Part shown: positions 1 to 10,433 of the stretch, piece after piece | Numbering within the stretch: the stretch's first letter is position 1 | How the letters are laid out: each line of letters opens with the position of its first letter | DNA from: an uncultured archaeon | Lineage (GTDB): Archaea; Iainarchaeota; Iainarchaeia; Iainarchaeales; DATDZZ01 | Assembly: GCA_964373795.1 (NCBI GenBank) | Contig: CAYJVY010000018.1 | Location: 1-11,793 of the forward strand | Direction of reading: 5' to 3' | DNA: 11,793 bases | Notes under the pieces: model-generated | Databases searched by the model: none | What the model saw: only the letters and a program-made list of their open reading frames with translations | Told to the model about the DNA's origin: nothing | Translations under genes and position numbers: made by a program

Positions 1-204
1 GGGCATTGCGCTTGCCGCGCGAGACTACAGCTGAAGGCCGACGTAGGCATCGCGCTCGCAGGCGTGACCACGACTGAATGCCCATACAGGCAGTCGCGCT
101 TACCGGGTTTCGCCCTTGCCGGGCGATCGACACGTCAGGCGTCTCGCATCTGCCTGGCGCCTCGTACTCGCCAGACGCCTCGTACTCGCCGGACGTGACG
201 GCGG
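1..204. repeat. GC-rich mosaic repeat island A, truncated by the left window edge
   Basis: GC-rich block ends abruptly at 204 against AT-rich DNA. Positions 1-37 are the exact reverse complement of 6257-6293 in island C. It contains ctgaaggccgacgt (31-44), also present in island B. It has a tandem 18-nt repeat, gcctcgtactcgcc[a/g]gac, at 159-176 and 177-194, and a hairpin cgccc-ttgcc-gggcg at 111-125. Confidence 0.8.
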
Positions 205-212
205 TTTTAAAA
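205..212 (+). promoter_or_regulatory. TATA-like box (ttttaaaa) about 27 nt upstream of the ATG at 236; probably a leaderless transcript
   Basis: The A/T octamer directly abuts the end of island A. There is no Shine-Dalgarno-like GGTG between it and the ATG. The spacing matches the other genes in the window. Confidence 0.35.
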
Positions 213-235
213 TTGTTTTTGTTTGAAATTAGTGT

Positions 236-877
236 ATGGTTTCATATTCTGAGTTAGAGAAAAGAATTGCTTTGCTTTTAATGCATGGCCCTAAAACCTT
301 TGAAGAACTAGTAAAGCAATTGAATGTTTCTTCAAATGAGTGTTCTAATGCTTTAAAAAAAATGCTTCAATTAAAGGTAGTTGAAAAACAAGGATTCCCT
401 ACAAAATATGCTTTAAAAAAAGATATTTCAAAAGAGGTTAGCAGAAGACAAGAAATTGAATCAAAGGATGAAAACAAGGTTAGATTAAAAATAATAATTG
501 AAGGAAAAGCATTAAATGAAAATTCTTTGAATAAAATGCTTTCACAAATAATTGAAGCATTAAAAAAGGATTCAGATTTTTTATTGTATGACTTTAAACA
601 AGAAACTCCTTTAAAAGAAGGAGAATATTACTCTAATTTCATTGAAGTAAATCTTTCATTAAAAGATTTTTCTGCTATAACAAAGCTAGTGTTCTTTTAT
701 GCTCCTACAAGCATTGAAGTAGTAAAACCAGCTAAAATAGAGTTAACAGCTCAAGACTTGCAAGACTCTTTAATTACAATGACTGACATGGTGCACGCAT
801 ACAGTCAATACATTTTAAAGCAAATGAATAAAGAAGAATTAAATGCATTCAATAAAAAAGTTTACAACAAACTCTAA
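236..877 (+). CDS. Hypothetical protein with an N-terminal winged-helix (MarR/TrmB-like) DNA-binding domain
   Basis: 213-aa ORF. N-terminus LEKRIALLLMHGPKTFEELVKQLNVSSNECSNALKKMLQLKVVEK...YALKK has the helix-turn-helix plus wing pattern. I do not recognise the C-terminal two thirds. Confidence 0.6.
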   Translation: MVSYSELEKRIALLLMHGPKTFEELVKQLNVSSNECSNALKKMLQLKVVEKQGFPTKYALKKDISKEVSRRQEIESKDENKVRLKIIIEGKALNENSLNKMLSQIIEALKKDSDFLLYDFKQETPLKEGEYYSNFIEVNLSLKDFSAITKLVFFYAPTSIEVVKPAKIELTAQDLQDSLITMTDMVHAYSQYILKQMNKEELNAFNKKVYNKL

Positions 878-880
878 CTG

Positions 881-929
881 CCCTTTTTCTTTTTAAAAAA
901 AAAGGTGTAAGCTGCATAAAAAGAAAAAC
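881..929 (+). repeat. Repeat X1: T-run/A-run imperfect hairpin plus aaaaggtgtaag core; likely terminator region of the upstream gene
   Basis: cctttttcttttt/aaaaaaaaagg inverted repeat lies right after the stop at 877. It is an imperfect direct copy (roughly 80% identity by eye) of 1814-1866. Confidence 0.5.
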
Positions 930-932
930 TAA

Positions 933-963
933 TTTTATTCAGGCTTGGAATTAAAAACGTTTT
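933..963 (+). repeat. Repeat Y1: 31-nt perfect direct repeat, left copy
   Basis: ttttattcaggcttggaattaaaaacgtttt is identical to 1761-1791. Confidence 0.9.
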
Positions 964-992
964 CTTATAAATCAAAGATTGTACTCAAAAAC

Positions 993-7885: not shown

Positions 7886-8620
7886 TTGAAAAAACTCTTA
7901 TTATCATTTTTTGTTTTAATTTTTGCAATTTTAGTTTTTGCATCAGTAAGTGATACTATTATACGAAATTACGACACTGATCAAGGAAAGCTATCAATGA
8001 AGTTTTACAAGGGATGGAATGTTGTTTCAAAAAAAATTCTTTCCTCTTCTTCAATTGATTCCGAAGAAGCAAAAAAATGTAATTTAAAAGCAGTGTTTGT
8101 TTATTCTCCTAAAACAAAAAAATATTATGGAGGAGGAACAAACTATGTGCCTCCACAAGAATTTAATGATTTAATGTCAAGTGAAACGAATGAAGGATAT
8201 TATTATGCAGAATTTGAAGGAGGCTGGCTTAACGTTGGAAGTGATTGCTCTTTAACTGTTAATGGCCCAAAGGAAAGTGAATTACAAAAAACTTCAAGCA
8301 TTATTGAAACAACTAAAAACAAGTTTAAAATGAGGCAAGGATGGAATTTTGTTTTAATGCATCCTTATGCAGAAGGATTAAGTTTTTCAACTCATTTAGG
8401 GACTTGTTTCAATAAATTTGAAAAACTAGCTGCATGGAATCCTCAAACACAGAAATGGGATTCAGTTGTAAAAATAACTGAAACTGAAAAAGAAAAATTC
8501 AAAAAAACTGAAATTTCTCGAGACGTTATTTGGAATACTTATTTAATGAAGTTTTCAGATGAATGTCAATTCTCTTTAGAGGAAGGATCTGATTTAATGC
8601 CTCCTGCACTGCCTGAGTAA
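7886..8620 (+). CDS. Hypothetical secreted or membrane-anchored protein
   Basis: 244 aa with a TTG start. It has an N-terminal hydrophobic signal or anchor (KKLLLSFFVLIFAILVFASV) and belongs to no family I recognise. It ends in LMPPALPE. Confidence 0.5.
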   Translation: MKKLLLSFFVLIFAILVFASVSDTIIRNYDTDQGKLSMKFYKGWNVVSKKILSSSSIDSEEAKKCNLKAVFVYSPKTKKYYGGGTNYVPPQEFNDLMSSETNEGYYYAEFEGGWLNVGSDCSLTVNGPKESELQKTSSIIETTKNKFKMRQGWNFVLMHPYAEGLSFSTHLGTCFNKFEKLAAWNPQTQKWDSVVKITETEKEKFKKTEISRDVIWNTYLMKFSDECQFSLEEGSDLMPPALPE

Positions 8621-8677
8621 TATTTTTAATTTCATTGCAACAAATTTTATTTAGTTCTTTTTGTTTTAGTGGTTTAA

Positions 8678-9235
8678 ATGCAAGTTTCGTTTGATGAGTT
8701 GCGAAGAATTTACCGTTTAGAAAAAAATACTTCTAATTTAGTTGAAGTAGAAGAAGATTTTTTTAACGCGTTAAATGAATTTATTAAAATTGAAAAACAA
8801 AGATATTTAGAGTCTTTAAAAAAAGATTTCAATGAATCTTCTGCAAGAGATTTCACTAACTTGAAAAAAATAGTTGAAGAACTTTTTTCTTTAAGGGAAA
8901 AAAAACTTTTAAACAAAGCATTAACTGCTTCTAGAACAAATGAATTAAATGAAACTCACATGTCTTTACAAGAAAAAGAAATGTATAGAAAACTAATCAA
9001 AGTATTAAACAATTACAATGAATTGCTTGTAGAAATTTTTAACGGAGAAGCAGAAAAAAATGATTCAAAGAGAAAAGATTTAAATAATCTTTCAATCCGA
9101 ATGATTTCAGATGTTCCAAGCTTTGTTGGAACTGACATGAATGAATATGGGCCTTTCAAGAAAGGCGAAACAGTTTCACTGCCTTTCAATATTGCTAAAT
9201 TGTTTTTATCCAGAAACTTAGGCGAAAAAATTTAA
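8678..9235 (+). CDS. gins51: GINS complex subunit, Gins51 (Gins15) type
   Basis: The N-terminal A-domain pattern is present (L..IYRLEK.S..L.EV.EDFF). The C-terminal B-domain pattern is also present (ISDVPSFVGTDMNEYGPFKKGETVSLPFNIAKLFLSRNLGEKI). The position next to priS, S27e and aIF2-alpha is the known conserved archaeal context. Confidence 0.7.
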   Translation: MQVSFDELRRIYRLEKNTSNLVEVEEDFFNALNEFIKIEKQRYLESLKKDFNESSARDFTNLKKIVEELFSLREKKLLNKALTASRTNELNETHMSLQEKEMYRKLIKVLNNYNELLVEIFNGEAEKNDSKRKDLNNLSIRMISDVPSFVGTDMNEYGPFKKGETVSLPFNIAKLFLSRNLGEKI

Positions 9236-9244
9236 AGTGATTAA

Positions 9245-9442
9245 ATGACTGAAATTGGAAAATTTATTCCAAAACCTAAAACAAAATTTTTAAAAGCAAA
9301 ATGCAGTAGCTGTGGAAATGAACAAATTGTTTTTTCTGCTGCTTCAACTCTAGTTAAATGCGTTGCATGCGATCATGTAATTGCAAAGCCTTCAGGCTCG
9401 AAAGTAAAATTAAATGTTAAAGAAGTAAAAGAATTAAATTAA
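9245..9442 (+). CDS. rps27e: 30S ribosomal protein S27e
   Basis: 65 aa with a C4 zinc ribbon (CSSCGNEQIVFSAASTLVKCVACDHVIAKPSGSKVKL). An SD-like gtgat lies just upstream. Confidence 0.9.
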   Translation: MTEIGKFIPKPKTKFLKAKCSSCGNEQIVFSAASTLVKCVACDHVIAKPSGSKVKLNVKEVKELN

Positions 9443-9479
9443 TTCTTCTTCATACTTTTTTTATTTAAAAGATGATTTA

Positions 9480-10265
9480 ATGAATAAAGAACTTCCAGAA
9501 ATTGGAGAAATAGTTGTATGCAAAATAAATAAAATATTAGATTATGGAGTGTTTGTTGAATTACTTGAATATGAAGGAGTAACAGGTTTTGTTCACATAT
9601 CTCAAGTTGCTTCCAGTTGGATTAAAAACATTAGAAATTATGTAAAAGAAAATCAAACAAGAGCAGCTCAAGTAACAAACATTGATTCAAAAAAAAATCA
9701 AATAGATTTATCTTTTGTTAAAGTTTCTCCAAGCGAGCAAAGACTGAGAATTGAAGAATTTAAGCAAGTAAAAAGATCTCAAAAACTAATTGAATTACTT
9801 GCAAAAGAAAAAAAGAAAAGCTTTGAAGTTACTTGGGAAAAAGTTGCCGAACCATTAATTCAAAACTATGGCTCTTTGTATAAAGCATTTGAAACAATTA
9901 CTTTAGAAAAACAAGAAGCATGTAAAGGAGTTGAAGAGTCTTGGATTCCCTCACTTGTTTCAATGGTGGAAAAAAATATTGAGTCTCCAAGAAAAATAGT
10001 TAGAGGAGTAATTGAATTACATTCACTTGCATTTAATGGAGTGGAAATAATTAAAGACGTATTACTTAAAACTCTTAAAACGGTTAAAGGAGAAAAAGAA
10101 TTCTTGTATAAAGGTTCAAACAAGTTTTTAGTAAGAGTAACTTCAACTGATTACAAGTCAGCGGAAAAAAAATTAAAAGAAATTTGCGAAACAGCAGTTG
10201 AATTAATTAAAAAACAACAAGGAACAGGGCAATTTCAAATACTTGGAAAAAAAGAACAAACATAA
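9480..10265 (+). CDS. eif2a: Translation initiation factor 2 subunit alpha (aIF2-alpha)
   Basis: Contains an N-terminal S1 domain (LPEIGEIVVCKINKILDYGVFVELLEYEGVTGFVHISQVASSWIKNIRNYVKENQ). Length and position after S27e fit aIF2-alpha. Confidence 0.9.
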   Translation: MNKELPEIGEIVVCKINKILDYGVFVELLEYEGVTGFVHISQVASSWIKNIRNYVKENQTRAAQVTNIDSKKNQIDLSFVKVSPSEQRLRIEEFKQVKRSQKLIELLAKEKKKSFEVTWEKVAEPLIQNYGSLYKAFETITLEKQEACKGVEESWIPSLVSMVEKNIESPRKIVRGVIELHSLAFNGVEIIKDVLLKTLKTVKGEKEFLYKGSNKFLVRVTSTDYKSAEKKLKEICETAVELIKKQQGTGQFQILGKKEQT

Positions 10266-10277
10266 TACCTAATTTTT

Positions 10278-10433
10278 CCAGCTGCAAGGTCTCGCGCGGT
10301 TTGCGCGAAACAGTTTCGTCGGCCGCTCTGCATCAGCCTCGCCGGCTGCGACGTCTCGTGCGTCGAGCACGAGGGCCGACGTCGGCCTTCAGCCTCGCCG
10401 ACTGATCGCTTCAGCCTCGCCGGCTGAACGGCG
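10278..10433. repeat. GC-rich mosaic repeat island D
   Basis: It fills the convergent gap between aIF2-alpha and PCNA. It carries three direct copies of (t)tcagcctcgcc[g/a][g/a]ctg at 10333-10348, 10388-10404 and 10410-10426. It has hairpins at 10292-10308 and 10355-10373 and the perfect palindrome ggccgacgtcggcc at 10374-10387. Its right end (10407-10435) matches the reverse complement of the left end of island C (6112-6140) at 22 of 29 positions. Confidence 0.85.

Follow-up and report, generated by a model that had tools for sequence, protein, structure and literature searches.

GC-rich hairpin repeats interspersed through an AT-rich locus of an uncultured DPANN archaeon

Why should the spacers of a very AT-rich archaeal locus be occupied by islands of GC-rich, palindrome-bearing DNA? 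DPANN archaea have small, streamlined genomes with scant non-coding DNA, and the locus in question is a complete NCBI contig (CAYJVY010000018.1; 11,793 nt, referred to throughout as the window) from an uncultured DPANN metagenome-assembled genome (MAG) of the Diapherotrites/Iainarchaeota type. The window carries four such islands, which we call A to D. We lean towards reading them, with confidence somewhat above even, as a lineage-specific, non-coding, interspersed family of hairpin repeats that builds up into composite clusters and offers recombination a substrate. This reading is favoured because the four islands are related far beyond chance, because a hidden Markov model (HMM) of their repeat unit matches only the islands, and because one hexamer, TTCAGC, recurs at the joints between modules.

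Island A (1-204, minus strand; 137/204 G+C, 67%) is truncated by the contig end and has its units on the minus strand. Island B (3976-4066, minus; 66/91, 73%) lies between the divergent genes for PAC2 (ATG at 3942, minus) and PriL (ATG at 4141), island C (6111-6369, plus; 157/259, 61%) between those for MscS and PriS, and island D (10278-10434, plus; 107/157, 68%) between the convergent genes for aIF2alpha (stop at 10265) and PCNA (stop codon at 10436-10438). The remaining 11,082 nt of the window have a G+C content of 29.1%, and the claim from which this analysis started, of four GC-rich blocks in an AT-rich background, is thus borne out (61-73% against 29%). For the 60 nt next to island B, originally quoted as 11/60, we counted 9/60 to its left and 20/60 to its right. 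The islands occupy, as had been described, spacers upstream of a gene, between divergent genes, between co-directional genes and between convergent genes.

Composition switches as abrupt as these, in a contig that itself starts inside an island, could betray a chimeric assembly with a GC-rich organism or contamination by one, and the original prediction had named a chimera as one way in which it could fail. Six Logan contigs, assembled independently from two sequencing runs (ERR4904391 and ERR3478686), agree with the window at 99.9-100% identity and span five AT/GC junctions (A-right twice, C-right, D-left twice and D-right). A literature search on the accessions of these runs returned nothing. 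Two of them, from the two runs (L125 and L126), reproduce 8-962 and 15-962 at 100%, L001 reproduces 6316-7816 at 100%, L127 and L128 both end at 10362, and L124 starts at 10371. Run-to-run differences are confined to three single-nucleotide polymorphisms, all outside the islands. With the junctions reproduced from two runs, with modules common to the islands, and with nothing in the searched phages, plasmids and GC-rich genomes that matched over more than 21-24 nt, an artefact is scarcely credible. The junctions of island B are without independent support, because exact-protein look-ups for MscS, PAC2, PriL (348 and 396 aa) and the product of the neighbouring 427-aa gene found nothing on record.

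Modules are shared among the islands at 77-100% identity and in both orientations. A 1-37 and C 6257-6293 are reverse complements without a mismatch (37/37), and 42 of 43 positions of B 3984-4026 agree with the reverse complement of C 6303-6345. C 6218-6264 and D 10347-10393 are co-linear over 47 nt at 77%, a stretch that takes in the exact 15-mer CGTCGAGCACGAGGG, and the left end of C (6113-6141) resembles the reverse complement of the right end of D (10406-10434) over 29 nt at 83%. All the similarities on which the original prediction had based a related family of mosaic, palindrome-bearing, GC-rich intergenic repeats were therefore reproduced. A further one, not on its list, joins B 4006-4057 to the reverse complement of D 10357-10408 over 52 nt at 87%, and can also be aligned as 37 nt at 94.6%.

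The islands had been described as mosaics of short modules reused in different orders, copy numbers and orientations. The sharing of modules is confirmed, and the description can be refined: most modules are pieces of a single diverged unit of about 44 nt, arranged head to tail and joined at TTCAGC. When the islands are aligned in one orientation, the unit reads as a stem-loop, then a 14-nt palindrome centred on ACGT, then TTCAGC. Island C contains two 44-nt units on the plus strand, at 6221-6264 (C_u1: hairpin, GGGTCACGTGACCC palindrome, TTCAGC) and at 6265-6308 (C_u2), the latter carrying the 37-nt module common to A and being about 65% like the unit of D when compared by eye. The unit of D (10350-10393, plus, 44 nt) comprises the hairpin CTCGTGC-GTCGA-GCACGAG, the palindrome GGCCGACGTCGGCC and TTCAGC. 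Units of 45 nt on the minus strand are found in B (4021-4065) and in A (30-74), and A also holds a partial unit (2-28) equivalent to the start of C_u2.

The HMM built from these five units has matches confined to the islands, including four in A (30-71, the partial 2-28, 179-202 and 74-107, all minus). Within an island the units run uniformly head to tail at a spacing of 22-72 nt, with A and B oriented opposite to C and D. Island A has, in addition, an 18-nt tandem repeat, CGCCTCGTACTCGCCAGA (2.1 copies, 95% match, 158-195), with no counterpart in B, C or D.

TTCAGC or its complement GCTGAA occurs 10 times in the 721 nt of island sequence, against 0.27 expected, and is located at the joints between modules. 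The same hexamer doubles as the 5' arm of a hairpin, TTCAGCC-TCGCC-GGCTGAA, which is perfect at 10410-10428 (plus). The core of this hairpin, CAGCCTCGCCGGCTG, has four exact copies (4010-4024 on the minus strand, 6305-6319, 10334-10348 and 10412-10426) and two variants (10390-10404, and 6142-6156 on the minus strand), with none expected from 200 shuffles. Comparison between islands shows how the pieces are joined: C corresponds to a B-like core plus exactly one extra unit, C_u2, bracketed by TTCAGC at 6259 and 6303, and the version of the hairpin in B and C is distinguished from that in D by a 19-nt insert bracketed by GGCTG. ACGT is likewise overrepresented in the islands (10 against 2.3 expected). 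The richness in 6-bp palindromes that had been reported was also found, with every GCCGGC (5), GACGTC (3) and CACGTG (2) of the window, and three of its five CAGCTG, lying in the islands.

Minimum free energy z-scores against dinucleotide shuffles (plus/minus strand) were −4.6/−4.1 for C, −3.0/−2.3 for D, −1.9/−1.5 for B and −0.9/−0.2 for A. The earlier description of the islands as hairpin-dense therefore holds for C and D, where z is about −3 to −5 whichever strand is folded, and marginally for B; it does not extend to A, which folds no better than its shuffles. That C and D fold well on both strands is as expected for DNA palindromes. In the ACGT palindrome, three of the five pairs show double-sided changes, GGGTCACGTGACCC and GGCCGACGTCGGCC differing by three compensated pairs; in the unit consensus, double-sided changes affect 7 of the 15 pairs. 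These changes are suggestive of hairpins kept by compensation while their sequence drifts, and since the copies are few the covariation is not statistically strong.

We looked for known structured RNAs across the window. No Rfam 15 family reached its gathering threshold, which agrees with the original prediction, and neither a transfer RNA nor a transfer-messenger RNA was found. The best match was to chrB-a (RF03078) at 6216-6300 on the minus strand, with 30.1 bits where the family's gathering score is 43.9 (window-wide E = 0.063), and no other match had E<0.5. It is driven by a linear CGAG.C.ACAGC.GAAG in an unpaired linker and includes four non-canonical pairs, probably reflecting a chance resemblance between GC-rich hairpin sequences. 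The match overlaps the 37-nt module common to A and C.

The placement of the islands relative to genes is tight. The three island ends that face gene starts each touch an octamer made only of A and T, 31-33 nt before the ATG: TTTTAAAA (205-212, plus) touches A, 31 nt before the ATG at 236; TTTTATAA (6370-6377) touches C, 32 nt before the ATG at 6402; and TTTAAATT (3975-3968, minus) touches B, 33 nt before the ATG at 3942. This is where the TATA box of a leaderless archaeal mRNA is expected, and the octamers are, by position and composition, putative promoter TATA boxes. Elsewhere, D ends one base from the PCNA stop codon, and C overruns the 3' end of the MscS gene, whose final ~20 codons and stop are encoded by the island (6111-6170, plus); homology of MscS to its orthologue in a relative (L117, see below) stops at residue 289 of 312. 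Since their ends abut TATA-like boxes or stop codons, the islands fill essentially all the dispensable intergenic space. Of the seven island ends that are visible, four have a CGCCGT-type motif in common. At its left end C carries the terminal motif TCGCCGTTCAGC (6113-6124, plus), the reverse complement of which ends D (10423-10434, 12/12), and related ends are seen in A (197-204, GACGGCGG) and at the right of C (6363-6369, GTAACGG).

To place the islands in an evolutionary context we turned to the genes around them. The window encodes a TrmB/MJ0538-like protein, a MazE/PIN pair, a 427-aa protein and PAC2 (minus strand), followed by PriL, an MscS-type channel, PriS, two small open reading frames (ORFs), GINS51, S27e, aIF2alpha and PCNA (minus strand). 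PriS, PriL, GINS51, PCNA, aIF2alpha and S27e, with best homologues in Diapherotrites MAGs, bear out the original description of the locus as archaeal. In a protein search of 5.8 billion sequences the nearest PriS proteins were 53-56% identical, so that no close relative is at hand. We compared the loci around PriS from three relatives, L117 (39% G+C), L120 (34%) and L121 (33%), in which PriS is ~55% identical. No GC island was found in any of them within 5-21 kb around the orthologous genes, and their orthologous spacers, 8-217 nt long and AT-rich, are island-free.

The comparison revealed a rearrangement. In the relatives the genes follow the order PCNA>PriL>...>PriS>GINS>S27e>aIF2alpha>PAC2>, then the 427-aa gene on the opposite strand; in the window the order is PAC2< (B) PriL>...aIF2alpha> (D) PCNA<, and here too the 427-aa gene converges on PAC2. 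The block at 4141-10265 (plus), PriL-MscS-PriS-(two small ORFs)-GINS51-S27e-aIF2alpha, is inverted relative to the flanking PAC2 and PCNA as compared with all three relatives, and judged from these gene orders the arrangement in the window is the exact product of a single inversion of the PriL-to-aIF2alpha block. Both inversion breakpoints coincide with islands, B and D, which have the 52-nt inverted repeat in common, with one arm at each breakpoint (arm 1, 4006-4057; arm 2, 10357-10408). Homologous recombination between inverted repeats is a textbook route to inversion, and recombination between B and D may well have caused this one.

Island A, for its part, adjoins the TrmB/MJ0538-like gene, the orientation of which differs from that in the relatives. 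Other breakpoints in the window are free of islands, namely those around the MazE/PIN cassette, at PriL-MscS and at PriS-small ORFs-GINS. An apparent flip of MscS with respect to L117 was given no weight, since L120 has no MscS at that place and identity to the L117 copy is only 41%.

Do the islands have further copies? The Logan assemblies of both runs break at 10362 inside D, with L124 starting at 10371, and other contigs start at 6316 and at 15. None of the 31-mers at these island breaks is repeated within the window, and the NCBI contig itself starts inside a repeat module. Because the assemblies break in island 31-mers that are not repeated locally, and because the contig starts in a module, further copies elsewhere in the genome are pointed to; judging from these breaks, such copies may well exist.

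Searches of wider collections returned no relatives of the islands. A scan of GTDB genomes with the 17-mer TTCAGCCTCGCCGGCTG, too short a pattern for the purpose, gave at least 115 single chance matches in GC-rich bacteria, with no AT-rich locus among the matches listed. The 21-mer GGCGAGGCTGAAGGCCGACGT gave two chance matches in JGI metagenome contigs, both on contigs of 60-70% G+C and neither extending past the seed, and scans of IMG/VR with four modules gave zero or chance matches only. Comparing islands A and C with plasmids and phages by blastn produced no match, which makes it less likely that they are a recent piece of some known GC-rich replicon. At the protein level, nothing scored among the best 8,000 candidates for a 1,180-aa composite of all island open frames, a 55-aa frame of C had no match among 1.84 billion representatives, and a 48-aa frame on the opposite strand retrieved no candidates; these peptide searches are insensitive, as Logan contigs break inside islands and leave island-derived ORFs too short to detect. 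Full-text literature searches aimed at such repeats in DPANN archaea found no report, and we know of no description of interspersed repeat families in DPANN archaea.

How might such clusters have arisen? The family is known from a single 11.8-kb contig, and its spread and mechanism can be sketched only conditionally. Units consisting of ~44 nt plus a 15-19-nt hairpin would accumulate head to tail in the scarce free intergenic DNA of a compact, AT-rich genome, where the free sites would be those just upstream of core promoters and those just after, or slightly over, stop codons. New units or clusters would be copied between sites as single-stranded hairpin DNA. The agent may be a trans-acting enzyme encoded elsewhere, for which an HUH/Y1 transposase of the IS200/IS605-RAYT type (RAYT, REP-associated tyrosine transposase) is the obvious candidate, or it may be template switching and gene conversion at TTCAGC and GGCTG microhomologies. 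Once dispersed, the clusters would provide homology that travels with them, recombination between the copies in B and D, which face in opposite directions, would have inverted the PriL-to-aIF2alpha block, and hairpins at transcript 3' ends may secondarily terminate or stabilise transcripts. A bolder version of this scheme, which is possible and to which we give a modest chance, would make the islands an archaeal counterpart of yeast GC clusters. They would then spread without a dedicated transposase, by hairpin- and microhomology-templated copying at TTCAGC joints together with ectopic gene conversion, would colonise slivers next to promoters and stops, and would be a main driver of gene-order rearrangement.

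Several observations weigh against a spreading repeat family. No copy of an island was found outside this organism in any collection searched, and no transposase or recombinase is encoded among the ORFs of the window. The islands differ in length and make-up, so that no unit-length mobile element is defined. Their terminal inverted repeat is weak, and no target-site duplication is visible around them, in agreement with the original prediction, which had seen no convincing one. Given that the relatives are only ~55% identical in PriS, their empty sites speak for lineage-specific gain and not for recent insertion; and the islands are identical in both runs, with no presence/absence polymorphism seen. 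Logan contigs also break in ordinary coding DNA (6646, 7816 and 9100), which weakens the copy-number argument. Finally, the lack of excess structure in island A counts here too, and the covariation derives from 4-5 paralogous copies, with the palindrome score reached by 32 of 500 shuffles.

Two other explanations need not exclude a repeat family. The islands might be cis-acting RNA elements, kept since their hairpins terminate or stabilise the flanking mRNAs, in the manner of REPs, and not through selfish spread. Indeed, the same end, 5'-UCGCCGUUCAGC, with its hairpin comes directly after the MscS ORF (left end of C) and after the PCNA stop (right end of D), in the sense orientation of each gene; the hairpins are preserved by compensatory change, and one G-U-type pair in B is tolerated on the TTCAGC strand only. 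Yet all three relatives do without islands at the same genes, where the spacers measure 8-100 nt, while A and B, as well as C at its right end, are situated upstream of promoters and not at 3' ends. Folding is, moreover, equally strong on both strands, and a mosaic of 91-259 nt far exceeds what a terminator needs, and we consider this explanation unlikely as the main one.

Alternatively, the islands could be scars of repair, that is, GC-rich filler produced by repeated template switching, snap-back synthesis and microhomology copying at double-strand breaks or at the junctions of rearrangements, with no dedicated mobility; they would then mark the breakpoints as the places of their making. All four islands lie where gene order or orientation differs from that in the relatives, their modules meet at microhomologies of 5-6 nt (TTCAGC, GGCTG) and recur in either orientation like templated insertions, and the missing target-site duplications and transposase in the window fit as well. 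The island-free breakpoints listed above speak against such scars, which would also require a GC-rich seed in a 29% G+C genome. Repair does not predict that hairpins are maintained by compensation across diverged units, the assembly breaks suggest additional copies elsewhere, and this origin is rather improbable.

GC-rich islands in AT-rich archaeal genomes usually mean stable RNA, and they are a classic signal of non-coding RNA (ncRNA) genes. This approach to ncRNA discovery is the subject of PMC6429828, and the strong structure of C and D and the sub-threshold chrB-a match could be taken to indicate a paralogous family of stand-alone structured ncRNA genes. That match falls short of its gathering score, as does every other Rfam family, and scores mainly through its unpaired linker; island length, module order and orientation vary; the islands are not conserved at syntenic positions in L117, L120 and L121; structure is present on both strands; and one island overruns the end of an ORF. 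For these reasons we hold ncRNA genes to be very unlikely. Still less probable are arrays of protein-binding sites, in which palindromes such as GACGTC, CACGTG and GCCGGC would act as operator, chromatin or partition sites. The enrichment of 6-bp palindromes and ACGT cores would fit such arrays, as would the three island ends that abut TATA-like boxes, in the position of a TFB recognition element (BRE). The palindrome arms, however, change and yet stay symmetric (GGGTCACGTGACCC against GGCCGACGTCGGCC), which fits a structural constraint and not base-specific recognition, and the relatives have the same genes without the islands, to which no candidate binding protein is linked.

Other features of the window are worth recording. 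The MazE/PIN toxin-antitoxin cassette (1037-1715) is enclosed by another repeat family, this one AT-rich, arranged as X-Y (cassette) Y-X. This second family consists of an exact 31-nt direct repeat (933-963 = 1761-1791) and of a 34-nt repeat at 85% identity that contains an A/T hairpin (895-928 and 1832-1865). The Logan contigs of both runs stop at 962, at this AT-rich repeat, and the relatives have no such cassette in the corresponding region. Upstream of PCNA, a 285-nt AT-rich spacer includes a G-rich patch at 11336-11400 (GGGGGGAAGAGGGGAGC...GGGAGGCTCAGC...GGCTCCGCCCTCG) with a terminator-like hairpin at 11372-11388, where the unit HMM has no match. At the right contig end (11793), the NCBI contig and L124, which comes from a different run, end at exactly one and the same base, within an ORF that matches no Pfam family, probably pointing to something repeated or variable just beyond.

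The gene content of the block also varies. The two small ORFs between PriS and GINS51 (7668-8620) encode proteins of 69 and 244 aa with hydrophobic N-termini and no Pfam family; in all three relatives PriS is directly followed by GINS51. L117 has an insertion of ~6.4 kb (3480-9899 of its locus) devoted to ion transport between PriL and PriS, with a P-type ATPase, an Na/Ca exchanger, CorA and two MscS genes, and the PriL-PriS spacer of L120 contains only a 35-aa ORF. On account of these two cases, the PriL-PriS spacer is a recurrent site of gene gain in the lineage.

If the hairpin-repeat family were confirmed genome-wide, it would mean that even streamlined DPANN genomes can be colonised by selfish hairpin DNA, and that very AT-rich genomes, those of yeast mitochondria, of Rickettsia and now of an archaeon, come by GC-rich hairpin clusters through convergence. 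It would also mean that such clusters supply dispersed homology behind changes of gene order, as in the inversion of the primase-GINS-aIF2alpha block. On the practical side, the islands break short-read assemblies of such MAGs, and they can be mistaken for contamination by composition filters or for ncRNA genes by GC-island screens.

To which known systems, then, can the islands be compared? Some candidates were rejected. Integron attC sites, which are recognised as folded single strands, have recently been reported in archaeal MAGs. Like them, the islands have imperfect palindromes after ORFs, and GCTGAAC...GTTCAGC loosely resembles the R''/R' boxes (RYYYAAC/GTTRRRY). The extra G/C is present in only 3 of the 10 TTCAGC motifs, the genes on either side are not cassettes but core, syntenic genes of replication and translation, and no IntI is encoded in the window. 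Replication-origin (origin recognition box, ORB) repeats were discarded as there is neither an Orc1/Cdc6 gene nor an ORB-like sequence, and CRISPR repeats because the units abut without spacers. Protein-coding islands were set aside as well, the open frames being merely those that 65% G+C predicts. [quoted passage not shown] The islands differ from them in having no target-site duplication and, at the ends of C only, a weak inverted match (TCGCCGTTCAGC against a degenerate CCGTTAC), and in being stretches of 91-259 nt with differing modules, not copies of one unit-length element.

The islands also bear a likeness to the CGTC-tagged repeats and the Rickettsia palindromic elements (RPEs), which are likewise hairpin repeats with no dedicated transposase, carried by genomes that are reduced and AT-rich. 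An RPE can lengthen an ORF or intrude into it, much as happens with island C at the tail of MscS. CGTC-tagged repetitive extragenic palindromes (REPs) have a terminal CGTC, a stem of 8-9 bp starting with A/T pairs, a loop of 4-5 nt and a CCA tail (PMC3733652). In the islands CGTC/GACG is frequent (18 against 8.6 expected), mostly inside ACGTC, but occurs at no fixed end of the palindromes; the stems start with G/C, and there is no CCA tail.

The original prediction had likened the architecture to mosaics of REPs and bacterial interspersed mosaic elements (BIMEs) or to the mobile GC clusters of yeast mitochondria. REPs and BIMEs are intergenic, GC-rich imperfect palindromes that form composite mosaics, often at gene 3' ends, and act as substrates of rearrangement (PMC3733652, PMC2817692). 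The islands resemble these and REPINs in their 20-40-nt GC-rich palindromes (TTCAGCC-TCGCC-GGCTGAA and the 14-nt ACGT palindrome), which are intergenic save for the overrun at the MscS 3' end, in their composite mosaics with units in both orientations, in their compensated stems, in their association with gene 3' ends and in their link to rearrangement. Membership in the family did not hold up. The GTAG tag is absent, GTAG/CTAC occurring 3 times in 721 nt against 4.7 expected and at no fixed place beside the palindromes. Furthermore, the island units run head to tail in one orientation instead of as regularly alternating REP pairs, no RAYT is encoded in the window, and the host is an archaeon with 29% G+C. 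REPs flank a RAYT gene and number tens to hundreds per genome; the 11.8 kb available here hold four islands.

Yeast mitochondrial GC clusters are built of units that merge and shuffle while their stems are kept, have no known transposase (PMC4478555), and are preferred sites of recombination (PMC4478555; Dieckmann & Gandy 1987 as cited there). Much the same can be said of the islands, which, like GC42 and other clusters, consist of GC-rich palindromic units in AT-rich spacers, shuffled into composites, with constrained stems and no transposase known. The sequences are unrelated, however, and the islands reside on an archaeal chromosome. Yeast clusters are flanked by an AG/TAG target duplication, whereas no consistent duplication flanks the islands; and strain polymorphism is the key evidence for mobility in yeast. 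The two populations sampled here carry identical islands, which does not amount to an absence of polymorphism. The islands thus belong neither to REP/BIME nor to the yeast GC clusters. GC-rich palindromic repeats that colonise AT-rich genomes are nevertheless well known as a general kind, and by analogy the islands look like selfish interspersed repeats of the REP/BIME or yeast GC-cluster kind, carried in this case by a DPANN archaeon.

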